From: an uncultured Planctomycetales bacterium
Lineage (GTDB): Bacteria; Omnitrophota; Gorgyraeia; Gygaellales; Profunditerraquicolaceae
DNA: 64,000 nt
NCBI GenBank assembly: GCA_964603585.1
Contig: CAZRVK010000005.1
Location: 90,027-154,026, forward strand
Direction of reading: 5' to 3'
A model generated the notes under the pieces. The model was not told where the DNA came from. It did not search any database and saw nothing but the letters and a program-made list of their open reading frames with translations. The position numbers and the translations under genes are program-made. Below, piece after piece: positions 2,661 to 46,899 of this stretch. Within the stretch, counting starts at the first letter, position 1; every line of letters begins with the position of its first letter.

Positions 2661-3769
2661 GGCAAGATTCGATGCGGATCATAAGGCGTAAAGCCAGGAT
2701 AATGAAGATCGGAGATGTTTATATCGGAGGAAAGAATCCTGTCGCCATTCAGTCTATGGCAAAGCATAAGACATCCCATGTTGAAGCGGTTATCGCTCAA
2801 ATCGATTCCCTTAAAGAATGCGGGTGCGAAATTGTGCGCCTGGCAGTCAAAGATAATGATGACGCCAGGGCGTTGAAAAAGATCAAGCTTAAAGCTTCTT
2901 TGGCTTTGGTTGCGGATATCCATTTTGATTGGCGTCTGGCAATAGCGGCGATTGAGAGCGGAGTAGATAAGATCCGGCTTAACCCGGGTAATATTTATAA
3001 GAAAGAAGAAGTTGTGTATATAGCGCAAGCAGCCCGGGCGCATCGTATCCCGATAAGAGTGGGGTTGAATTCGGGTTCCTTGCCACCGCAAATTAGAAGC
3101 CACAAAGTCAGAAGCCACAGGGGCACAGGTATTGTTGAGCGGATGGTTGGGGGAGCATTAAAGTATATCCGTACCCTGGAAAAAGCAGGTTTCTATGATA
3201 TCGCGGTTTCTTTAAAGGCCTCGAATATACTGGATACGATTGCGGCGTATCGTAAGATTAGTCTGGCCTGTGATTATCCTCTGCATTTGGGGCTTACCGC
3301 GACCGGCCTGCCTTTGCAAGGAGCGGTCCACTCTTCGGTGGCAATCGGCGCGTTGTTATTAGAAGGAATTGGTGATACAATAAGGGTATCGCTTACCGAG
3401 AATCCAGAAGCAGAAGTGAGGGTAGCTAAGTCAATATTGGAGTCGCTGGATTTACGCCATTTCGGTGTCAAGGTTATTAGCTGCCCTACCTGTGGCCGGT
3501 GCGAGGTCAATTTGATCAAAATAGTCTCTGAATTAGAAAATAAACTCTCGGCACTTAATCATAAGTTCCGGGCTCATCCGCTGAAAGTGGCAGTGATGGG
3601 TTGTATTGTCAATGGCCCGGGGGAAGCGCGGGAGGCGGATATTGGGGTTGCCTTTGGAAAGGATAAAGGTCTTTTATTCAGAAAAGGCCAGGCAATAAGG
3701 AAAATACCTTTTGCTAATTGCGCAGATATACTCTTAAGGGAGGTGGCGAAGATAAAATGTCTAAGCTGA
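2657..3769 (+). CDS. ispG: 4-hydroxy-3-methylbut-2-enyl diphosphate synthase (GcpE)
   Basis: 'RRKARIMKIGDVYIGGKNPVAIQSM' N-terminus and the C-terminal 'CPTCGRC' Fe-S cysteine motif. Confidence 0.95.
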   Translation: MRQDSMRIIRRKARIMKIGDVYIGGKNPVAIQSMAKHKTSHVEAVIAQIDSLKECGCEIVRLAVKDNDDARALKKIKLKASLALVADIHFDWRLAIAAIESGVDKIRLNPGNIYKKEEVVYIAQAARAHRIPIRVGLNSGSLPPQIRSHKVRSHRGTGIVERMVGGALKYIRTLEKAGFYDIAVSLKASNILDTIAAYRKISLACDYPLHLGLTATGLPLQGAVHSSVAIGALLLEGIGDTIRVSLTENPEAEVRVAKSILESLDLRHFGVKVISCPTCGRCEVNLIKIVSELENKLSALNHKFRAHPLKVAVMGCIVNGPGEAREADIGVAFGKDKGLLFRKGQAIRKIPFANCADILLREVAKIKCLS

Positions 3770-11288: not shown

Positions 11289-12046
11289 GCTATAAAATCA
11301 AACTGGAAGTATTTGAAGGGCCTCTGGATCTGTTGTTATACCTGGTGAAAAAAGACCACCTTAACATTTATGATATCCCGATCGCTAAAGTCACCGAGCA
11401 ATATCTGGGTTATATCGAATTGATGCGTATGCTCGATCTTAATATTGCCGGTGAGTTCTTGGTGATGGCGGCGACACTTCTGGCGATTAAATCAAAAATG
11501 CTTCTGCCGGCAGAGGAAACCCCGGAGGCTGCAGATCCCGAGGATCCCCGGGCGGATTTGGTTAAACGTCTCCTGGAGTATGAGAAATTCAAGGAGATCG
11601 CCGAGAACCTGCGCCAGAAAGAAGCCCTCCAGCAAGAGGTTTTTAAGCGCACTAAACCCCAGGATACAACCCAATTTCCCAAAGCCCAGGATGAAGTTTA
11701 TTTTGAGTCCAGCATTTTCGACCTGATCAGCGCATTCACCAAGGCGATGCAGGATATCCCCAAAGAAATATTTTATGAGGTGATTAAGGATGAGTTTACG
11801 GTTGAAGAAAAGGTCCATCAGATACTGCATCTTCTTTTATTGCGCGATTCGGTGCTTATCTCGGAGTTGTTTGCGCAGTCAAAGAATAAGATCGAGATCG
11901 TAATTACTTTCCTGTCGATCTTGGAGCTGATCCGCATGAAAGAAATAATTGCCAGGCAAAAAGGTTTGTTTGATGAAATCGAAGTTATCCGCAATAAGGA
12001 GAATATCATACCGTATGACTCCCGAAAAGACGCAGAAACCAGCTAA
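11285..12046 (+). CDS. scpA: Segregation and condensation protein A
   Basis: 'LEVFEGPLDLLLYLVKKDHLNIYDIPIAKVTEQYL' is the ScpA signature N-terminus. Confidence 0.9.
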   Translation: MSYKIKLEVFEGPLDLLLYLVKKDHLNIYDIPIAKVTEQYLGYIELMRMLDLNIAGEFLVMAATLLAIKSKMLLPAEETPEAADPEDPRADLVKRLLEYEKFKEIAENLRQKEALQQEVFKRTKPQDTTQFPKAQDEVYFESSIFDLISAFTKAMQDIPKEIFYEVIKDEFTVEEKVHQILHLLLLRDSVLISELFAQSKNKIEIVITFLSILELIRMKEIIARQKGLFDEIEVIRNKENIIPYDSRKDAETS

Positions 12047-13139
12047 ACTGCAGAAGAAAACGGTTCTGGAAAAACGCACGCCTTATATTGATGCAGGAGA
12101 TACGGATGAAGCGCTGCCTGCTCCAGTACGTGCACAGCAAGAAACCGATGAGGATGTTGTTTTAAACATTTCTTTACGCCCGCAGAGGTTTGAAGAGTTC
12201 ATCGGACAAAATGATGTTTTGGATAATTTAAAGATTTGTATTACGGCGGCAAAGCAGAGAAAAGAGCCTTTGGAGCATCTGCTTTTTTCCGGGCCTCCCG
12301 GGCTGGGAAAAACCTCGCTTTCGCATATAATTGCCCATGAAATGGGGACAAAGATCACCGCAACCTCCGGCCCTGCGATCGAGCGGGCTGGGGACCTTAT
12401 TGGGATACTGACCAACCTGGGAAAAGGCGATATCCTTTTTATCGATGAGATCCATAGGCTTTCCAAGGTGGTTGAAGAATTCCTTTATCCGGCGATGGAA
12501 GGTTTTCAGATAGATTTTGTGATCGATAAGGGGCAGTTTGCCCGGACGATCAAGTTTAATCTTAAACCTTTTACTTTGATCGGTGCAACCACCAGAAGCG
12601 GCCTGCTGGCAGCTCCCTTACGCAGCCGGTTTGGGATATTCCATCACCTTGATTTTTATGACACAAAAGACCTGTCGCAGATCATCAAGAATTCAGCTAA
12701 GACATTTGCCGTGGATATAGACAGCCAGGCCGCTGATGAGATTGCCAGGCGTGCCCGAGGGACTCCTCGGATCGCCAACCGCCTGTTGCGCCGGGTCAGG
12801 GATTATGCGCAGGTTAAAGAGGTAAGAAAGATAAATTTAGAGATCGCTTCAATGACTCTTGATGAACTGGGGGTTGATACCGGAGGATTGGATGATATTG
12901 ACCGCAGGGTATTAAAGACCATTCTGGAGGTATATGACGGCGGTCCAGTCGGGGTTGATTCCTTAGCAGCTACTTTAAATGAAGAAGTCGATACCATTGT
13001 TGATACTATTGAGCCATTTTTGTTGAAAGCAGGATATCTAAAGCGTACTTCCCGCGGCAGAGTCGCGACGCAGCTTGCCTTTAAACATTTCGGATTAAAA
13101 TATAAGTTCGAGAAACAGGAAGAGTTATTCGAGAAGTAA
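12015..13139 (+). CDS. ruvB: Holliday junction branch migration ATPase RuvB, with a Lys-rich N-terminal extension
   Basis: 'LRPQRFEEFIGQ', Walker A 'GPPGLGKTS' and a C-terminal winged helix. The ORF is open from 11949. I chose the ATG at 12015 as start, which overlaps the 3' end of scpA. Confidence 0.85.
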   Translation: MTPEKTQKPAKLQKKTVLEKRTPYIDAGDTDEALPAPVRAQQETDEDVVLNISLRPQRFEEFIGQNDVLDNLKICITAAKQRKEPLEHLLFSGPPGLGKTSLSHIIAHEMGTKITATSGPAIERAGDLIGILTNLGKGDILFIDEIHRLSKVVEEFLYPAMEGFQIDFVIDKGQFARTIKFNLKPFTLIGATTRSGLLAAPLRSRFGIFHHLDFYDTKDLSQIIKNSAKTFAVDIDSQAADEIARRARGTPRIANRLLRRVRDYAQVKEVRKINLEIASMTLDELGVDTGGLDDIDRRVLKTILEVYDGGPVGVDSLAATLNEEVDTIVDTIEPFLLKAGYLKRTSRGRVATQLAFKHFGLKYKFEKQEELFEK

Positions 13140-13338
13140 TTGTTTATGAGTTATATTTGAGCTGGTATGAGCCAATAGATTGCGCTCATAGCTCATGGCT
13201 CATGGCTCATTGCTCATATGAGTTAATAGATTGCGCTCATGGCTCATAGCTCATTGCTCATATTAGTTAATAGAGTGTTCTTTATTAGTAATGTTTTTGC
13301 TTTTACCATGAGCCATGAGCCATGAGCCATGAGCTAAC
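13140..13338. repeat. Dense array of the heptad GCTCAT(N) and its inverse ATGAGC(N), forming a long imperfect palindrome
   Basis: About 9 forward 'GCTCAT' copies (13184-13261), two copies of a 45-bp unit 'AATAGATTGCGCTCAT...', and 4 tandem 'CATGAGC' copies (13308-13335) that are the exact reverse complement. Read directly from the sequence. Confidence 0.85.
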
Positions 13339-13890
13339 GTGTCTATGAAACTACTCTTACACATATGCTGTGCCCCATGCCTTATTTATCCCTTGTCCAG
13401 TTTAAAGGATCAGGGGGCAGAGGTAAAAGGGTTATTTTATAATCCCAATATCCATAGTTTTGCAGAGTATATTTTACGAAAAAACGCATTAGAAGAGTTT
13501 AGCAAAGCCGAGGGCCTGGAGGTAACTTATCCAGAGTATTTGCCGGCTGAATATTTTCATGCAGTAAACCTGAATGAGGATGATGAGAAAAGGTGTTTTC
13601 TTTGCTGGTCATTGCGGCTTAGGCAAACCGCTTCTTTTGCCAAAGAAAAAGGATTTGATGCTTTCTCTACTACTCTTTTGGTCAGCCCTTATCAAAATCA
13701 TGAACTGCTTAAGGCCATCGGCGAAGATGCGGCTCGTTCTTTCGGGATAATTTTCCATTATCAGGATTTTCGTCCCGGGTTTCGCCAGGCCAGGCAGAAG
13801 GCTGTAAAACGCGCGTTATACCTTCAGAAATACTGCGGCTGTATTTATTCGGAGATCCAGAGGTATAATCACAGGAAATTCCGCCAATGA
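13339..13890 (+). CDS. queH: Epoxyqueuosine reductase QueH (DUF208)
   Basis: N-terminal 'LLLHICCAPC' and additional Cys motifs typical of QueH. It sits in a cluster with queA and tgt. Confidence 0.75.
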   Translation: MSMKLLLHICCAPCLIYPLSSLKDQGAEVKGLFYNPNIHSFAEYILRKNALEEFSKAEGLEVTYPEYLPAEYFHAVNLNEDDEKRCFLCWSLRLRQTASFAKEKGFDAFSTTLLVSPYQNHELLKAIGEDAARSFGIIFHYQDFRPGFRQARQKAVKRALYLQKYCGCIYSEIQRYNHRKFRQ

Positions 13891-15027
13891 AATATAAGGG
13901 GGTTGTGATAATTGTATTTGTTCTTGTGGCTGTCTTTTGCCGGGAGGCGCCTGCCGCAGGCAGCCATACTGAAAGATATATCCGGGTTGCGATCATCCAG
14001 GATGCGGTATCGTTAAGGATCAAGATAAACGGGGCTTATCAGGTTAAAGATACTGGCGGTAGTAATAATTTCATCCGCGGAATAGATTTGAATACTACGG
14101 CTACAGTTTCTAAGAAAGGCGTATCTTTAGGAGTAGAGGAGTTTGTCTCCGGCAGGTTGTTAGTCATCCCCGATCAGCCGGATGCAATAATGATCAACGG
14201 CCGTTTCTTCCGCGGCAATATTGCATTGATAAAAAAACCTAACCAGCGTTTATTGGTAGTTAACCACGTAGATCTGGAAGATTATATCAAGGGGATACTT
14301 TACCATGAGGTATCGCATTATTGGCCTAAAGAGGTTTTGAAGGCACAGGCGATAGTTTGCCGTAGTTATGCGCTTTATCAGGCCCAGGAGAATAAATCCG
14401 GGGATTTTGACCTGACCAGTGATATTTATTCTCAAGTATACGGGGGCCGGACCTCGGAGCGGTACCGTACCAGCCGTATGGTCGAAGAGACAAGGGGCAA
14501 GGTTCTTTTTTATAATAATAAAATACTTCCGGCGTATTTCCATGCGACCTGTGCCGGCCATACTGAAGATGTATCCCGACTGTGGAATATGCGCCTTGCG
14601 CCTTTAAAAGGGGTGGAATGCAGTTTTTGCAAGAAATCACCGCATTTTAATTGGCACTTGGTTTTATCATTCTCGGAGATCGAAACTATCCTGGCAGGTT
14701 CAGCTTATAAAATAAAGGGCATGCATTCTATTCAGGTTGTTTCAAGGGATGCTTCCGGAAGGGTCATTAATTTAAAGATGGTTTCGTCTAAAGAAGAAAT
14801 CGAAGTTTCGGCTAAAGATTTCCGGAATCTGGTTGGCCCCAATCGTATCCGGAGCGCCAATTTTACTGTCAATACCTTTGGCAAGGACGTGGTATTTGAG
14901 GGCAGCGGTTGGGGGCACGGAGTGGGGTTATGTCAGTGGGGGGCGTATTTTATGGCAAAATCCGGAGTTAGCTATCAGAAGATCCTGAAACATTATTATC
15001 CCGGCTCGGAGATCGTTTCGATTTACC

Positions 15028-15035
<8 letters not shown>
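13887..15035 (+). CDS. SpoIID/LytB-domain protein (secreted amidase-enhancer / lytic transglycosylase-like)
   Basis: N-terminal signal peptide. SpoIID-family core 'YLKGILYHEVSHYWPKEVLKAQAIVCRSYALYQ' and C-terminal 'GHGVGLCQWGA'. Confidence 0.8.
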
Positions 15036-18883: not shown

Positions 18884-19256
18884 AAAAAGATTTTATTTAG
18901 GCAAAAACGGTGAAGCCTTAGCAGAGGAGTTCTTGAAAAATACCGGCTATTCGATCTTAGCCAGGAATTATAGGACTAAATTAGGAGAGATCGATATTAT
19001 CGCCCGGGAAAAAGAGACCATCTGTTTTGTCGAGGTAAAAACACGCACAGGCGAAAGGTTTGGGCTGCCTGAAGAGGCTTTAACGTATCACAAACAACAG
19101 CGGATTTCCAGGGCTTCGCTTGTTTTCTTAAATGAAAATAAACTCTTTGATCAAAAGGCGCGATTCGATGTAGTCTCCATAATGCAAAGTGGGGATACAG
19201 CGAAAATCAATCTGATCCGTAACGCCTTTGAATTGGATGAAAGGTTTACCTGCTAA
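18876..19256 (+). CDS. yraN: YraN-family (UPF0102) putative endonuclease
   Basis: 126 aa. 'GEIDIIAREKETICFVEVKTRTG' is the YraN core. Conserved rnhB-yraN adjacency. Confidence 0.85.
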   Translation: MSKKRFYLGKNGEALAEEFLKNTGYSILARNYRTKLGEIDIIAREKETICFVEVKTRTGERFGLPEEALTYHKQQRISRASLVFLNENKLFDQKARFDVVSIMQSGDTAKINLIRNAFELDERFTC

Positions 19257-19257
19257 G

Positions 19258-20952
19258 ATGCTTCCTGATTTTAAGATCGCCCAAGCCGCAAAGAAACTGC
19301 CAATAGAGGATATTGCCCGCCAATTGGGGATAAACAAGAAGTACCTTTTCCCTTATGGCCGGTATATCGCAAAAATTGACCTGGATATCCTAAAAACCCT
19401 AAAAGGAAAAAAACGCGCTAAATATATCTTAGTTACTGCGATCACTCCTACACCTTTAGGTGAGGGTAAGACCGTTACTACCATAGGCCTTTCGATGAGC
19501 CTGAATCGCCTGGGTGAACTTACTTCGGCCTGTATCCGTCAGCCATCTTTAGGCCCGGTGTTTGGAATAAAAGGAAGCGCTGGAGGAGGCGGGTATTCAC
19601 AGGTTCTGCCCCGGGAAGATTTTGACCTGCATTTTACCGGTGATGCGCATGCCGTAGGACTGGCGCATAATTTAGCCGCGGCGTTCATAGACAATTCTAT
19701 CTTCCGCGGCAACCCCAAAAAGATCGCCGCTGATAAAATACATTGGAATCGGGTGGTGGATATCGGTGACCGCTCCTTAAGGCAGGTGAAGGTGGGTTTA
19801 GGGATTAAAAATGATCGTTTTTCCCGTCTTTCCGGTTTTGAGATCACCCCGGCATCCGAGATCATGGCAATACTGGCTTTAAGCAAGGATATCGGAGATT
19901 TAAGGAGGCGTTTGGGACGGATTGTCCTGGCAGAAAGCGTTGATTCCAAGCCGGTGACTGCGGAAGATTTAAAGGTCGCCGGTATCATGGCGGTGCTTTT
20001 AAAGGATGCGATCAAACCCAATTTGATACAGACTATAGAAAACACCCCGTGTTTTGTGCATACCGGCCCTTTTGCAAATATTGCCCATGGCAACAGTTCG
20101 ATAATTCAGGATGAGATCGCCATGGCTCTTTCTGATTATGTGGTTACCGAGTCGGGATTTGGGGCGGATTGCGGCGCGGAGAAATTCTTTGATATTAAGT
20201 CCCGGATAAGCGGGATCGTCCCTGATGCTGCGGTTTTAGTTTGTTCGATACGTTCATTGAAGGCACACAGCGGAAGGTTTAAGGTTATCCCAGGGAAACC
20301 TTTGGACCCTGGTTTGAAAAAAGAAAGTCTTTCTGCAGTAGAAGAAGGCTTAAGTAATTTAAAAAAACAGATTGAAAATGTAAGGATCTTTGGCGTGCCG
20401 GTCGTGGTAGCGGTTAACCGGTTTGAAACCGATACCCGCGCCGAGATTGACCTGGTCCGGCGGAAGGCTTTGGATTACGGCGCTTTTTCTACCGAAGTAA
20501 GCGAGGTTTGGCAGAAAGGCTCTTCTGGCGGCTTGTCATTGGCCAGAAGCGTGATTAAGGCCGCATCACTTGATAAAAGATATCGGTTGCTTTATTCCCA
20601 AGGAATTGGTATAAAAGAAAAGATAGAGTTAATTGCCAAGCGCCTTTATGGGGCGAGCCGGGTGGAGTATTCTGCTCTATCCCGGAATAAAATCAGGCTA
20701 TATACTTCCCGGGGATGGGATAAGCTTTTGATTTGTATGGCAAAAACCCCGCTTTCTTTATCCCATGACCCGGAATTAAAGGGGAGCCCGCAGGATTTTG
20801 TTTTGCCGGTAAGGGATATCCGGGCTTTCGTTGGCGCGGGATTCTTATCCTGCCTGTGTGGAGCGATCCAGACCATGCCGGGTCTTCCCAGCCATCCGCG
20901 GGGAGAAAATATCGATCTGGATAATTTCGGCCGTGTTATTGGCCTGTCTTAG
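19258..20952 (+). CDS. fhs: Formate-tetrahydrofolate ligase
   Basis: 'ITPTPLGEGKTVTTIGL' P-loop and full-length FTHFS similarity. I chose the ATG at 19258 (MLPDFKIAQ...). Confidence 0.95.
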   Translation: MLPDFKIAQAAKKLPIEDIARQLGINKKYLFPYGRYIAKIDLDILKTLKGKKRAKYILVTAITPTPLGEGKTVTTIGLSMSLNRLGELTSACIRQPSLGPVFGIKGSAGGGGYSQVLPREDFDLHFTGDAHAVGLAHNLAAAFIDNSIFRGNPKKIAADKIHWNRVVDIGDRSLRQVKVGLGIKNDRFSRLSGFEITPASEIMAILALSKDIGDLRRRLGRIVLAESVDSKPVTAEDLKVAGIMAVLLKDAIKPNLIQTIENTPCFVHTGPFANIAHGNSSIIQDEIAMALSDYVVTESGFGADCGAEKFFDIKSRISGIVPDAAVLVCSIRSLKAHSGRFKVIPGKPLDPGLKKESLSAVEEGLSNLKKQIENVRIFGVPVVVAVNRFETDTRAEIDLVRRKALDYGAFSTEVSEVWQKGSSGGLSLARSVIKAASLDKRYRLLYSQGIGIKEKIELIAKRLYGASRVEYSALSRNKIRLYTSRGWDKLLICMAKTPLSLSHDPELKGSPQDFVLPVRDIRAFVGAGFLSCLCGAIQTMPGLPSHPRGENIDLDNFGRVIGLS

Positions 20953-23586: not shown

Positions 23587-24507
23587 ATGGCAAAAATAGT
23601 GGTTATTGGGAATTCGGCTGCCGGGTTTTCCGCCTGTCAGAGGCTTGTTGCACTGGGGCTAAAAGAGGTCACCGTGGTGACCAGGGAGAATACCATAGGT
23701 TATTACAAACCCAGGATTTTGGATTATTTATCTTCGGTTTCGACAGAGAAAGAGATATCAATATGTGCACAAGATTTTTATGCGCTCAATAACATAAATC
23801 TCCTGAAGAACAGCCAGGCCTGCCGGCTGGACACGAAAAAGCAGCGACTGATATTAAAAGACAATACAAAAATAAATTACGATTATTTGATCATTGCTTC
23901 AGGCGTAAGGCAGGAGTTAGGGGTTTTTACGGGTAAGAACAAGGAAGGGGTATTTGTTCTTAATGGTTTAGAAGATGCTATTGCCATTAAGAAACGCTTG
24001 CTTGTAACGAATACTATTTGCTTGATTGCAGAGTTGTCCTTAAGTTTGCGGCTTGCGCAGATATTTTTTGCTTTGGGAAAAGAGGTTAAACTGATCTCTG
24101 AATCCCCGGCTATACTTCCCGAACCATTATTATCGTCTGGAAAAGTTGAGTTGATTATGCAGGCTGCGGTGCAGGAGTTTATCGGCGACGGCGCGCAATT
24201 GCAGGCGGTAAAACTAAATAGCGGCAAGGTGATAGCTGCCGATATGGCGATTTTTGCAGGAGGATATACTCCCTGCACAGCTTTCTTAAAGGAAACCGAT
24301 GTTAAGATGGAGAACGGTTATATCCTGGTGGATGATGCGATGAGGAGTAATATTGATAACATCTTTGCCTGCGGGTCTGTTTGTAAAAAAACCTCCAGTA
24401 TGGATGAGCAAAAGAATTGGGAGCAGGCTTGGGAAGAAGGCTCTTTAGCTGCAGTGGAAGTAGCCCAATCAATTGAAAGGAGTAAGGCTGCATGTCAGAC
24501 GTTTTGA
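23587..24507 (+). CDS. FAD-dependent pyridine nucleotide-disulfide oxidoreductase-like protein (LpdA/Nox-like) with a degenerate second dinucleotide-binding motif
   Basis: N-terminal 'KIVVIGNSAAGFSA' FAD-binding fold. The expected NAD(P)H GxGxxG site reads 'ICLIAELSLSLRLA' instead. Sits between metF and acsB. Confidence 0.6.
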   Translation: MAKIVVIGNSAAGFSACQRLVALGLKEVTVVTRENTIGYYKPRILDYLSSVSTEKEISICAQDFYALNNINLLKNSQACRLDTKKQRLILKDNTKINYDYLIIASGVRQELGVFTGKNKEGVFVLNGLEDAIAIKKRLLVTNTICLIAELSLSLRLAQIFFALGKEVKLISESPAILPEPLLSSGKVELIMQAAVQEFIGDGAQLQAVKLNSGKVIAADMAIFAGGYTPCTAFLKETDVKMENGYILVDDAMRSNIDNIFACGSVCKKTSSMDEQKNWEQAWEEGSLAAVEVAQSIERSKAACQTF

Positions 24508-26675
24508 TCCAGTTGGGGGAAAAAGGCAATGAAGTGATTGGTTTGGCCGCCAGGACGTCTTTGGATGCGGCGATCAAATTCAAAGGCGCTCAACATAAAA
24601 TAGGATTTCCCCAGACAAATTATTATTTCCCTCTGGTTAATGCCTTATTGAAGATCGAAGTCAATACCCTGGGTGATTGTCTCCAGGTATTAAAAGAAGC
24701 GGAAAAATTGAATAATAACCAGGCCTGTTCCAGCGGATTGATCGAAAAAACCCTGGGCGGCATTCTTAATAAAGGGCTTGCGGTTCTATTTTGCGAAGAG
24801 GTATTGGCGGCTTTAGAGTATTTGAATCAAGGCCATCCCACAGAAGGATGTGCGGGGTTTTTATCGGATACTTTATTACGTTCATTGGGGATCCAGTTGG
24901 TTGATGGCCGGATAGCCGGGATCGCGGTTATCCTTGGTCCGGCTAAGGATGAAGATTCGGCGATGCAGTTGGTGCGGGATTTCCAGAAACGCAGTATTGT
25001 CAGCCTCCTGGCAGGCAATATCGGGGGGAACACTTTTAAAAAACAATTAGAGGCTAAATCGGTTGAACTGGGTCTGGAGAATTATATTGTGCCCTTAGGC
25101 AGTGATTATTTGTCCGTAATTTATGCTTTGAACTGGGCGGTGCGTGCGCCTTTGACTTATGGCGGATATAAGAGCGGGCAATGGCAGGAAATACTCAAAT
25201 ATACCAGGGATAAAGTCCCGGCATTTGTGGTGCTTTTAAGCCATGTCGATGAGACGATCGTTGCTACCGGCCTGGGGGCATTGGCGATGGGGTTTCCGAT
25301 TATCACCGATCTGGATCTGCCGCAGATAGGCAAGATCGATACTACTTCGTATGAAGCATTAGTGACACAAAAAGAATACAAGTCCCTGGCGGCACAATGC
25401 ATAGAGACCAGAGGCCTTAAGGTCAAAGTCGTTTCTGTCCCTGTCCCGGTGCCGTATGCCGCGGCATTCGAGGGTGAAAGGGTAAGGCGCGAACAATTAT
25501 ATGCCGAGTTCGGGGGCAAGGCCAGCACTGCATTTGAATTCCTGGTTACCAAAGGAATAAGCCAGGTCGAAGACGGCTTGGTAGAATTGTTTGGCCCGGA
25601 TATTGATGATCTTCCTCCGGGTGAAAGATCCATGCCTCTGGCAATCATCGTTGAAGTCGCCGGCAGAAAGATGCAAAAGGATTTTGAACCGATACTGGAA
25701 CGTCAGATCCATCGTTTTGTTAATTATGCCATGGGGTTAATGCATGTCGGGCAAAGGCAGATGAATTGGATCAGGATATCTCAAGATGCTTTTGCCAAGG
25801 GGTTCAGGTTAAAACATATCGGCGTGATACTGCATGCTATGCTGCATCAGGAATACAACGCTATTGTGGATAAAGTTCAAGTAAAGATCTTTACCCGGGA
25901 GGATGATGTAGGCAGGCTGTTACCGCAGGCGCTAAAGTCCTATGACGAGCGTGATGAACGATTAAGCGGAATGACCGATGAAAGTGTGGATACTTTTTAC
26001 TCCTGCCTGCTTTGCCAGTCTTTTGCCCCAAACCATATTTGCATGATCACTCCGGAACGCCTGGGTTTATGCGGGGCGTATTCCTGGCTGGATGGCAAGG
26101 CTTCCTATGAGATTATGCCAACTGGGCCGAATCAGCCGGTAGCTAAAGGCGAAGCGATAGATAAGAATCTTGGAGCGTGGAAGAATATCAACGATTTCTT
26201 TTACGAAAAGTCCAACAAAACCATCGAGCGTGTGAATATGTATTCTATGATGGATGCCCCGCAATCTTCCTGCGGGTGTTTTGAATGCATCGTGGCGATT
26301 ATACCGGAGGTGAATGGGGTGATGGTAGTGCACCGGGATTATCCCGGGATGACCCCCTGCGGGATGACGTTTACTACGTTGGCGGGTTCTGTAGGCGGGG
26401 GGGTGCAAACTCCGGGGTTTTTAGGTGTAGGCAAACTTTATATTGTCAGTAAGAAATTCATTTCCGCCGAAGGCGGACTAAAGAGAGTGGTTTGGATGCC
26501 TAAGGAATTGAAAGATGCCTTGGCGGATAAGCTGGATAAACGCGCCAAGGAGTTAAAAGAACCGGATCTGGTCAATAAGATAGCTGATGAAACGGTGGCG
26601 ACTACATCTGAAGAGCTTATCAGTTACTTGGAGAAGTTTGGTCATCCGGTCCTGGGAATGCCTCCGTTGTTTTAA
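24492..26675 (+). CDS. acsB: Acetyl-CoA synthase catalytic subunit (CODH/ACS alpha-type, AcsB/CdhC)
   Basis: Full-length similarity to AcsB, including A-cluster cysteine motifs 'DTFYSCLLCQSFAPNHICMITPERLGLCGA' and 'SSCGCFECIVAI'. Confidence 0.9.
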   Translation: MSDVLIQLGEKGNEVIGLAARTSLDAAIKFKGAQHKIGFPQTNYYFPLVNALLKIEVNTLGDCLQVLKEAEKLNNNQACSSGLIEKTLGGILNKGLAVLFCEEVLAALEYLNQGHPTEGCAGFLSDTLLRSLGIQLVDGRIAGIAVILGPAKDEDSAMQLVRDFQKRSIVSLLAGNIGGNTFKKQLEAKSVELGLENYIVPLGSDYLSVIYALNWAVRAPLTYGGYKSGQWQEILKYTRDKVPAFVVLLSHVDETIVATGLGALAMGFPIITDLDLPQIGKIDTTSYEALVTQKEYKSLAAQCIETRGLKVKVVSVPVPVPYAAAFEGERVRREQLYAEFGGKASTAFEFLVTKGISQVEDGLVELFGPDIDDLPPGERSMPLAIIVEVAGRKMQKDFEPILERQIHRFVNYAMGLMHVGQRQMNWIRISQDAFAKGFRLKHIGVILHAMLHQEYNAIVDKVQVKIFTREDDVGRLLPQALKSYDERDERLSGMTDESVDTFYSCLLCQSFAPNHICMITPERLGLCGAYSWLDGKASYEIMPTGPNQPVAKGEAIDKNLGAWKNINDFFYEKSNKTIERVNMYSMMDAPQSSCGCFECIVAIIPEVNGVMVVHRDYPGMTPCGMTFTTLAGSVGGGVQTPGFLGVGKLYIVSKKFISAEGGLKRVVWMPKELKDALADKLDKRAKELKEPDLVNKIADETVATTSEELISYLEKFGHPVLGMPPLF

Positions 26676-26694: not shown

Positions 26695-26722
26695 TTGACG
26701 TAATTTTATTTGTATGTATAAT
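26695..26722 (+). promoter_or_regulatory. Sigma70-like promoter: TTGACG, 16-bp spacer, TATAAT
   Basis: -35 TTGACG at 26695-26700 and -10 TATAAT at 26717-26722, in the AT-rich gap upstream of the TPR gene. Confidence 0.5.
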
Positions 26723-45657: not shown

Positions 45658-45676
45658 TAAGGGATAAAGATTTGGG

Positions 45677-45711
45677 GCGGCAGGCAATTTCCCCTGCCGC
45701 TTTTACTTCTT
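45677..45711. terminator. Rho-independent terminator between convergent genes (8-bp GC stem GCGGCAGG/CCTGCCGC, 8-nt loop, T-tract)
   Basis: The hairpin is followed by 'TTTTACTTCTT' on the + strand. It lies directly downstream of the stops of both 44590-45657 (+) and 45703-46899 (-). Confidence 0.6.
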
Positions 45712-46899
45712 ATATTCGGCCAGAAAAATATCCGCCATTAAACGATGGCCTTTTTCATTAAAATGCATGTCGTCTTTAATGAAATATTCACTAACGGCCG
45801 GTTGCGCGCTGGTTTCTTTATCGCCGTCTACGAAGTAGGGGAAAGAGTTGATAAAATCCACCTTGCGCTTTTTACACCATTGGCTCCAGTGTTTGGCATG
45901 GATCGAGTCCAGATCATGATGGATGACTTGTAGCGGCCACGGGTAAACCACCACCGTAAGTTTGATCTTATTCTTTTTTAGCAGATCATACAGTTTATCC
46001 ATATAAAACTGCATTTCACGGATCCCTTGCTGGCCATATTCCCTATATAGTTTATCGTCAATTGTCCATGCGCTTATGTTATAAATGTCAACATCTCTTT
46101 GCAGGGTAGTTTCTTCCTTTGGGGCAAAGTGGCTGTATAAATTACTTATAATCGTATATGATAGTATCGAATTATTTTTGAAACTGGCTTTAAACCTTCT
46201 CCACAGGGTCATATAGTATCCTTCGGTTTTATCAATTGTGCATGCCGGCACGTATCCTTGCGCATCAGACCAGACAACGTTGCCGCTTTCGTCCAAAGAA
46301 TAGTTTGTTGCTTCATTAGCCGCGTCGCTTATATCCAGGAAAACGGCTAACCGGTCGAATTTTAAACCGGCATCTTCGATAAGATACTTTATCTTTCTCC
46401 AGTAGATGATCGGCGAATATGAGCTTACCCCGGCATTGAGTACTTCGATGTTTTCTTTGGATAATGCTGTATCGATCAGCCCGGCAAATGTATGTTCATA
46501 ATTTATGCCTAATCCTTCCGTAAAAGAGTCTCCGATAAGGACAAGGCGAATGTTCTCCGGGATCAAAGGGATCTGTCTTGTTGATTTGTCCCGGAATCCC
46601 AGGGAATTGGTATAATAATCTGACCTGTTGCATCCCCAAATGACCCCGAGAACGGTTTTATTTTTGGCCAGGTCATGATGGTATAGTTTCGATTGCTCCC
46701 GGTAAGCTTTTTCCAGCCTTTTATACTCGATATTGTGACGTTCTTCTTGTCTTGCCGCCCAGGAATACCCGTGCATGAACCTGTAGATATTGGCGCTTAA
46801 GTAATCAAGGGTAAGAGCGGTTATTATAAGAAAACACAGGATTGTTTTCTTGGGATGGCGTTCGAATAGGGCGGAATTACTATTTTTCTTGTTTTCCAT
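45703..46899 (-). CDS. Membrane-anchored SGNH/GDSL-fold protein (paralogue 2)
   Basis: N-terminal TM. 'LVLIGDSFTEGLG' block I and 'DDMHFN' block V. Confidence 0.55.
   Translation of the reverse strand: MENKKNSNSALFERHPKKTILCFLIITALTLDYLSANIYRFMHGYSWAARQEERHNIEYKRLEKAYREQSKLYHHDLAKNKTVLGVIWGCNRSDYYTNSLGFRDKSTRQIPLIPENIRLVLIGDSFTEGLGINYEHTFAGLIDTALSKENIEVLNAGVSSYSPIIYWRKIKYLIEDAGLKFDRLAVFLDISDAANEATNYSLDESGNVVWSDAQGYVPACTIDKTEGYYMTLWRRFKASFKNNSILSYTIISNLYSHFAPKEETTLQRDVDIYNISAWTIDDKLYREYGQQGIREMQFYMDKLYDLLKKNKIKLTVVVYPWPLQVIHHDLDSIHAKHWSQWCKKRKVDFINSFPYFVDGDKETSAQPAVSEYFIKDDMHFNEKGHRLMADIFLAEYKK

Follow-up and report, generated by a model that had tools for sequence, protein, structure and literature searches.

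The spacer between ruvB and queH in the 64-kb stretch of Omnitrophota DNA analysed here (positions 1-64000, referred to as the window) is occupied by short repeats in both orientations, and this locus raises the question of what the element is, how it was formed and whether it affects the genes that follow it. The upstream gene, ruvB (12015..13139, + strand, stop codon at 13137-13139), was identified from its RuvB_N, AAA and WHD_RuvB Pfam matches, and its exact product is found on Logan contigs. The downstream gene, queH (13345..13890, + strand), encodes epoxyqueuosine reductase (PF02677), with an exact 181-aa product on record. A 183-aa QueH with a GTG start was set aside, the on-record start being the ATG at 13345. 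The spacer extends from 13140 to 13344 and the whole repeat element lies inside it, outside coding sequence. No Shine-Dalgarno motif was found before the queH ATG in the Shine-Dalgarno survey. Homologues of QueH that carry a source name point to Omnitrophota, and the order trpS-scpA-ruvB-(x)-queH-(DUF2905)-spoIID-queA-tgt is kept across this phylum.

Nearly all genes of the window are carried by the + strand and the GC skew is constantly positive. Wood-Ljungdahl genes (fhs at 19228-20952, folD, MTHFR and ACS/CODH beta at 24492-26675) adjoin the queuosine and translation genes.

Read from left to right, the element begins with a degenerate inverse group (13146..13172, - strand) composed of ATGAGT at 13146, TTGAGC at 13157 and ATGAGC at 13167, which do not follow a 7-bp spacing. 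A module, CAATAGATTGC (13173..13183, + strand), found again at 13224-13234 and partly at 13268-13275, precedes forward heptad tract 1 (13184..13217, + strand), which holds five GCTCAT units with A, G, G and T as seventh bases and ends in a near-palindrome, GCTCAT/ATGAGT (13212..13223), read directly from the sequence. The second module copy, between the two forward tracts, reads TAATAGATTGC and is followed by forward heptad tract 2 (13235..13261, + strand), with four GCTCAT units and G, A and T as seventh bases. An AT-rich unique spacer of 46 nt (13262..13307), delimited by reading of the sequence and by comparison with the related locus L149, forms the loop. The inverse heptad tract (13308..13334, - strand), which on the + strand consists of ATGAGCC x3 plus ATGAGC(T), ends 10 nt before the queH ATG. 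The element is a set of opposed heptanucleotide SSR tracts, (GCTCATN)n facing (ATGAGCN)n.

The first-pass annotation had reported about 16 hexamer copies in both orientations with a 7-bp period, nine of them forward and four in inverse tandem, right at the start of queH. These counts are borne out by 14 exact and 4 degenerate copies within the region, and the position between the two genes by the Pfam matches and the distance to the ATG. The nine exact forward copies start at 13184, 13191, 13198, 13205, 13212, 13235, 13242, 13249 and 13256, the exact inverse hexamers comprise the four tandem copies of 13308-13334 and the isolated one at 13167, and degenerate copies are located at 13146 (ATGAGT), 13157 (TTGAGC), 13218 (ATGAGT) and 13262 (ATTAGT). 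Exact GCTCAT occurs 38 times in the 64-kb window, and 14 of these 38 copies fall inside the 168 bp of 13167-13334. With the other 24 copies in about 63.8 kb taken as background, 0.06 copy is expected per 168 bp, and the Poisson probability of 14 copies (by arithmetic from the hexamer counts) is of the order of 1e-27, so that chance is excluded.

TRF detected period 7 at 13184-13218, 13235-13262 and 13306-13334, with 85-100% matches (100% for the last tract). The two super-repeats, previously given as 45 bp long, are better described as a 50-nt unit that recurs at a distance of 51 bp (86% identity), as obtained by direct-repeat search, TRF giving a 44-nt super-repeat. The hexamer core is invariant in 22 of 22 tandem units and the seventh base varies. 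Each forward tract can match the inverse tract, with inverted arms of 27-29 nt that are 93-97% complementary (29 nt and 97% for 13189-13217 / 13308-13336) and a gap of 46-97 bp between them. These arms are by far the strongest inverted repeats of the whole 64 kb, in which no further array or module copy was found.

A single-stranded DNA fold of -35.9 kcal/mol (z = -6.8) would be compatible with a DNA cruciform or a replication-pausing structure. Cruciform extrusion from duplex DNA is strongly disfavoured by long spacers between arms, and those of the element are 46-97 bp apart, which makes the cruciform-forming element suggested earlier unlikely. An assembly artefact had also been envisaged. 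The Logan assemblies of SRR15237810 and SRR15237811 match the left 200 bp and the forward arrays of the window base for base, and an artefact is excluded by three concordant assemblies and by the related locus L149, which carries the element too. A cruciform, a pausing structure or an artefact, considered together, is an extremely improbable account of the locus.

The same assemblies carry information on tract length. The left contigs of both runs end at the same base, after tacc followed by ATGAGCC x3 and ATGAGC, i.e. within the inverse tract. The start of the right contig lies 30 nt before this point, which corresponds to a k-1 overlap with the left contigs. Because the k-mer at the break includes unique flank, the assembly graph branches at the element. 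Co-existing alleles with 4 versus 5 or more inverse units would be the simplest reading of this branch.

The closest relative of the locus, L149 (ENA), has a QueH that is 91% identical and carries the element at the ruvB-queH junction as well, its flanks and loop being almost unchanged. Between the two loops (13262..13307 in the window), 3 substitutions and 1 indel were counted. The window has 5+4 forward and 4 inverse units, L149 3 and 6 respectively, so that both arms have changed length, in opposite directions. It possesses a single module; the 51-bp module duplication is absent, and forward tract 2 belongs to this missing segmental duplication. A 51-bp block made of a module plus a tract thus appears to have been duplicated or lost between the two loci, the inverted pair having survived. 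The window and L149 form a clean natural pair, in which both arms of a palindrome resize independently.

These comparisons show that replication slippage and unequal tract alignment created the element and keep resizing its tracts. The contingency tract proposed by the first-pass annotation is upheld as far as its slippage-prone nature is concerned, given the copy numbers of L149 and the contig break in the inverse tract; its on/off role is not, the tract lying neither in a coding frame nor in a promoter spacer.

Divergence between the two loci was used as a measure of constraint. Between the window and L149, 52 of 339 codon third positions differ (about 15%), against 6 of 90 positions in the non-repeat parts of the spacer (Fisher p = 0.037), which is a marginal hint of possible constraint, taken from one sequence pair. 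The complementarity of the seventh bases is good in the window and poor in L149, whose stem is interrupted by U.C and U.U mismatches after each block of 6 bp. Neither this poor pairing nor the independent arm lengths fits selection for a defined duplex.

In more distant relatives (61-67% QueH identity), gene order is kept and no heptads were found in the ruvB-queH spacer. These spacers are quite different, range from 69 bp to 1 kb and often contain a small unannotated ORF. Since such relatives keep the gene order without heptads, the element is not needed for queH, and the ruvB-queH spacer is shown to be dispensable within Omnitrophota.

The small ORFs found in the ruvB-queH gap of relatives (128-156 aa, without Pfam match) are located at 895-1311 in L150, 895-1323 in L152, 2325-2711 in L153 and 2005-2475 in L327, and are absent from the window; the one in L153 is preceded by a strong Shine-Dalgarno sequence, and its N-terminus resembles a signal peptide. 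A 23-nt sequence, GTGGCTTGGTTTGGTTTCGAGCG, is common to L153 (2740-2762) and L150 (680-702, also in L152) in opposite orientation. It sits at differing positions of the ruvB-queH spacers, inside GC-rich, structured-looking regions, and may be a small mobile or structured element. Rfam scans of the relatives' ruvB-queH spacers gave no match.

Other heptad tracts, of unrelated sequence, were observed in Omnitrophota relatives inside the 5' coding end of the spoIID-like gene that comes just after queH. L326 carries TTTGGTC x5 at 3384-3418, which encodes FLVFGLWSLVFGQ, and both L329 and L330 carry AGTTATC x4.6 at 3275-3306, which encodes LVISYQLSVVS. The three tracts fall in the signal-peptide or membrane-anchor region, and as gain or loss of a single 7-bp unit would alter the reading frame, these spoIID-like genes are candidate phase-variable genes. 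The L330 contig ends within its tract. The spoIID gene of the window (13887-15035) has no such heptad tract. Taken with these spoIID tracts, the element suggests that variability in this uncultured phylum may generally arise from heptamer repeats.

The distribution of the unit was examined beyond this phylum. A scan of one genome per species returned at least 119 loci with at least 4 GCTCATN units in many phyla, against a chance expectation of about 0.004 matches for this four-unit scan; the named matches include Acidobacteriota, Bacteroidota, Chlorobi, Chloroflexota, Planctomycetota, Cyanobacteria, Proteobacteria, CPR groups and others. The array survey comprised 167 arrays in 145 loci, 88% of the arrays being outside called ORFs, with flanking genes scored as tandem (61), convergent (23) or divergent (16). 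Among the 167 arrays, no orientation bias relative to transcription (34 vs 27) and no preference for 5' or 3' gene ends were detected. Arrays that are mostly extragenic and unbiased are expected of slippage repeats tolerated only where a 7-bp step breaks no frame, and not of a conserved protein or RNA motif. No sparing of the core was found across the class, mismatches of decaying units falling on all 7 positions. Opposed GCTCAT tracts within 600 bp of each other were found at three other loci (L059, L116 and L122), in three gene contexts.

Control searches were performed on viral contigs. Three permutations of the core, equal to it in composition, yielded 57, 56 and 22 stretches, compared with 26 for GCTCAT, and a period-8 control gave 31. 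That arrays are widespread whatever their core argues for a generic slippage origin, not for a conserved motif. No preference for period 7 over period 8 being evident in these contigs, the over-representation of heptamers is taken from the literature only: in the survey of Mrazek 2007, as far as it is relayed by PMC4679880 and PMC4692102, heptamers are the most abundant unit among bacterial long SSRs (a class of 5-11-nt units in that survey), and slippage is proposed as their origin. On that reported abundance, the 7-bp period is not unusual.

Membership in a REP-like family, also raised at first, receives no support: neither the window nor the metagenome scan yielded a second copy of the 17-nt module, and GCTCATN arrays elsewhere are independent of one another and no commoner than permuted cores. 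The module pattern AATAGATTGCGCTCATNGCTCAT had one chance match in metagenome contigs, within a coding region (L157), and no module copy was present in other fetched loci. GCTCATN arrays are accordingly a generic slippage class, and neither a REP family nor a conserved binding motif.

Many GCTCATN arrays adjoin other heptad arrays of different sequence. Such mosaic loci, from other phyla and viral contigs (L004, L007, L011, L022, L134, L136, L142 and L145), often combine several distinct arrays of heptads or 14-bp units, among them AGCTATC, GAGCTGT, GGTAAGGATTAAGG and CCTTGAA, and an AGCT/GCTS core is common to many of these arrays.

These surveys bear on the explanation by which slippage built the inverted tracts with no selected consequence, the hairpin being incidental. 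It is favoured by the frequency of permuted cores and of period 8, by the absence of orientation or position bias, by decay at every position of the unit, by distant relatives that lack the element in the same gene order, and by arms that change length independently and have lost seventh-base pairing in L149. It accounts less well for an inverted pair that persisted across the third-position divergence measured above, for unique spacer parts somewhat more conserved than third positions, and for hexamer cores that are perfect throughout beside a variable seventh base. In addition, a 29-bp stem located 9-10 nt from an AUG without Shine-Dalgarno sequence is unlikely, if transcribed, to be without physical effect. 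Such a neutral origin is possible, although on the unlikely side when considered by itself; it is nearly as likely as an effect at the RNA level, which is favoured here.

An effect on RNA depends on transcription through the spacer. No terminator-like site was found in 12900-13600, nor a T-run after either arm or a U-tract on either strand; canonical stem-plus-U terminators do occur elsewhere in the window (45674-45703 and 45734-45749). The missing U-tract and the loops of 46-97 nt mean that the element is not a canonical intrinsic terminator, as had been stated from the outset. The sole sigma-70-like site of the spacer (13129..13157, + strand, TCGAGA-17-TATATT, 9/12) is a poor match that runs over the end of ruvB and is unchanged in L149, and stronger promoter matches (10-11/12) were found in other intergenic gaps at 26695, 47053 and 57373. 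A promoter within the AT-rich loop was considered and rejected, as -10/-35 pairs could be placed by eye only at wrong spacings (13-14 nt). In the absence of a terminator and with a single weak promoter-like site, the whole element should enter the queH mRNA, transcription itself being presumed from these features.

Known RNA and repeat families were also searched. A permissive Rfam scan of 12800-13700 gave a best E-value of 0.069 for plant miRNA models, far below gathering scores, and these sub-threshold miRNA-like matches are caused by the hairpin. With no Rfam match above threshold, the exclusion of a preQ1 riboswitch made at first reading holds. So does that of a CRISPR array, the units being 7 bp long and contiguous, as opposed to 23-50-nt repeats with unique spacers of similar length.

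The minimum-free-energy fold of a 231-nt RNA reached -85.6 kcal/mol (z = -6.6), in agreement with the long stem around an AT-rich loop that had been proposed. Here the partner of tract 1 is the group of left inverse copies, and that of tract 2 is the inverse tract; an alternative pairing joins tract 1 and the inverse tract over 29 nt with one mismatch. A hairpin is also predicted in L149 (z = -3.4).

Such a hairpin could alternatively belong to the 3' end of the trpS-scpA-ruvB transcript, where it would either terminate transcription in a non-canonical manner or, like a REP, protect the message from 3' exonucleases, and would set this unit apart from queH. The element begins right after the ruvB stop, and the opposed GCTCAT pair of L122 lies between converging genes, 14 nt past the 3' end of a tmRNA gene, two positions that suit this explanation. 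Long imperfect hairpins of unrelated sequence likewise follow the ruvB stop in several relatives: L153 (1987-2180, -71 kcal/mol, z = -6.2), L150 (536-710, z = -2.7) and L326 (2245-2320, two 8-bp GC hairpins), and L329 has a 7-bp GC stem after ruvB. However, L327 has no hairpin after ruvB, a U-tract is lacking on both strands in an organism that has canonical terminators, no good promoter lies downstream to restart queH transcription, and the single copy seen does not fit REP-family membership. A role at the 3' end of the ruvB transcript is therefore rated as clearly unlikely.

Under the favoured effect on RNA, a transcript running from ruvB to queH would include the element, and either forward tract could pair with the single inverse tract into an RNA stem of 27-29 bp. 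The 3' arm of this stem would end 9-10 nt before the queH AUG, in the ribosome landing zone, where the stem may hinder ribosome access or provide a site for RNase III-type processing of double-stranded RNA. With a stem at this distance from an AUG that has no Shine-Dalgarno sequence, hindrance of the ribosome or dsRNA processing would be the most likely effect. RNase III could plausibly act on an uninterrupted duplex of at least 22 bp. The effect would be exerted between ruvB and queH-spoIID-queA-tgt, and changes in unit number would retune it at queH.

By analogy with the hmw genes of H. influenzae, discussed below, tuning of queH and operon output through stem length is inferred as the favoured outcome, with modest confidence. 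The complete statement, i.e. a pair of SSR tracts built by slippage and transcribed, with a stem that tunes queH or operon output, is held somewhat short of an even chance. The effect may be under selection, or may merely accompany a neutral repeat. A stronger version, in which the opposed tracts would act as a self-adjusting RNA 'rheostat' for the queuosine operon with the stem as an RNase III target, is speculative and improbable. If it were true, slippage on either arm would alter the length of the stem beside the AUG, and this would set operon output in a free-living Omnitrophota bacterium.

Every ATGAGCN unit contains an ATG, and an in-tract, in-frame TGA closes each five codons on. On the strand of queH, a uORF of 8 codons (13322-13348, MSHELTCL) starts at the ATG of the third inverse unit, and its TGA overlaps the queH ATG as ATGA. 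This overlap is probably a coincidence, given the 1-in-3 chance of the frame.

Overall, the observation made in the first-pass annotation is confirmed and its interpretation partly supported. One further proposal, an array bound by a regulator, is best considered along with the known system that it resembles. The omega/ParB protein of pSM19035 (ribbon-helix-helix, RHH) recognises runs of at least 4 contiguous 7-bp heptads, whatever their orientation (PMC9499535), so that a 7-bp period, formerly held to be unusual for protein-binding iterons, is not foreign to protein binding. By this explanation, an omega/ParB-like protein would bind as one dimer per heptad and would repress the promoter region of queH or organise it. 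The element indeed matches omega sites in architecture (PMC9499535), with at least 4 contiguous heptads, direct and inverted orientations mixed, an invariant core and a free seventh base, and mixed seventh bases occur in just 16% of the GCTCATN arrays elsewhere. Yet the core is GCTCAT, unlike the omega consensus WATCACW, unit number differs freely between close relatives and no other array copy is present in the 64 kb. Omega sites overlap the promoters of their own plasmid operons and have the cognate RHH gene adjacent; here no good promoter overlaps the heptads, and no RHH or regulator gene was found in the annotated neighbourhood, where the neighbours are all housekeeping genes. An array of binding sites is accordingly very improbable, and the absence of a cognate regulator nearby weighs against the regulator-binding proposal.

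Comparison with other repeat families also places the element within heptamer SSRs. Like REP and BIME sequences, it is a palindrome that lies between the cistrons of an operon and could fold into a stem-loop in the mRNA; unlike them, it consists of tandem 7-mers at one locus, REPs being dispersed multi-copy families of fixed sequence. No earlier description of intergenic inverted-pair heptamer repeats in Omnitrophota was found in the literature.

MacGregor 2015 described TAACTGA arrays in marine Beggiatoaceae, cyanobacteria and Bacteroidetes, and proposed a translational role for them (PMC4679880). Those arrays are likewise intergenic heptamers (2-6 units) that often end just upstream of start codons. 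They differ in that each genome has about 170 such loci, strongly biased to the forward orientation and almost never inverted (one indirect repeat), against a single locus with both orientations here. The AGTTATC unit of the relative L329 is a rotation of TCAGTTA, the reverse complement of TAACTGA (PMC4679880), and translates to the LSVISYQ-type peptide mentioned in the same work; from its sequence, this tract appears to extend the TAACTGA heptamer to Omnitrophota, although it is inside spoIID, not intergenic.

A closer resemblance is found with the intergenic heptamers GGGAATC / GGGGAYT of Xanthomonas and Nostoc (Rehm et al. 2015, PMC4692102). Xanthomonas genomes contain about 185 intergenic tracts of the GGGAATC type each, with 70-75 convergent inverted pairs; tract lengths differ between Xcc and Xac, the single or paired type is kept, and most tracts are transcribed (PMC4692102). 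The element shares with the repeats of both genera the 7-bp unit, the usual number of about 4 units, the intergenic position and opposed tracts able to form stem-loops, and with those of Xanthomonas the conservation of locus and paired type between relatives whose tract lengths differ (here the window and L149). Unlike them, its unit is not G-rich and has no G-quadruplex potential, it belongs to another phylum, Omnitrophota, and a single locus is present within 64 kb, compared with hundreds of copies per genome. The inverted-pair subtype being already described in Xanthomonas, the finding is real but fairly ordinary. Taken alone, the element matters little, as an Omnitrophota example, with a new unit sequence, of a heptamer class that is functionally unexplained.

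The nearest functional parallel is provided by H. influenzae, in which the hmw1A transcript includes the (ATCTTTC)n tract as one arm of a long hairpin, and RNase III cuts this leader hairpin, which sets expression (Rapun-Araiz et al., PMC12721329). The hmw system has a mapped promoter, RNase III cleavage and phenotypes, whereas the present case consists of a sequence and a predicted fold. As at hmw1A and hmw2A, a heptamer lies directly upstream of a gene and varies in unit number (a variation that sets expression in hmw). The hairpin predicted here, 10 nt from the ATG, would fit the hmw arrangement in its position if it lies in a transcribed leader. The right arm of the hmw hairpin is a unique G-rich region; in the window it is a second repeat tract, and the gene is a housekeeping tRNA-modification enzyme. 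Should the rheostat version be true, regulation of the hmw type would be extended from the surface proteins of pathogens to housekeeping genes of uncultured environmental bacteria.
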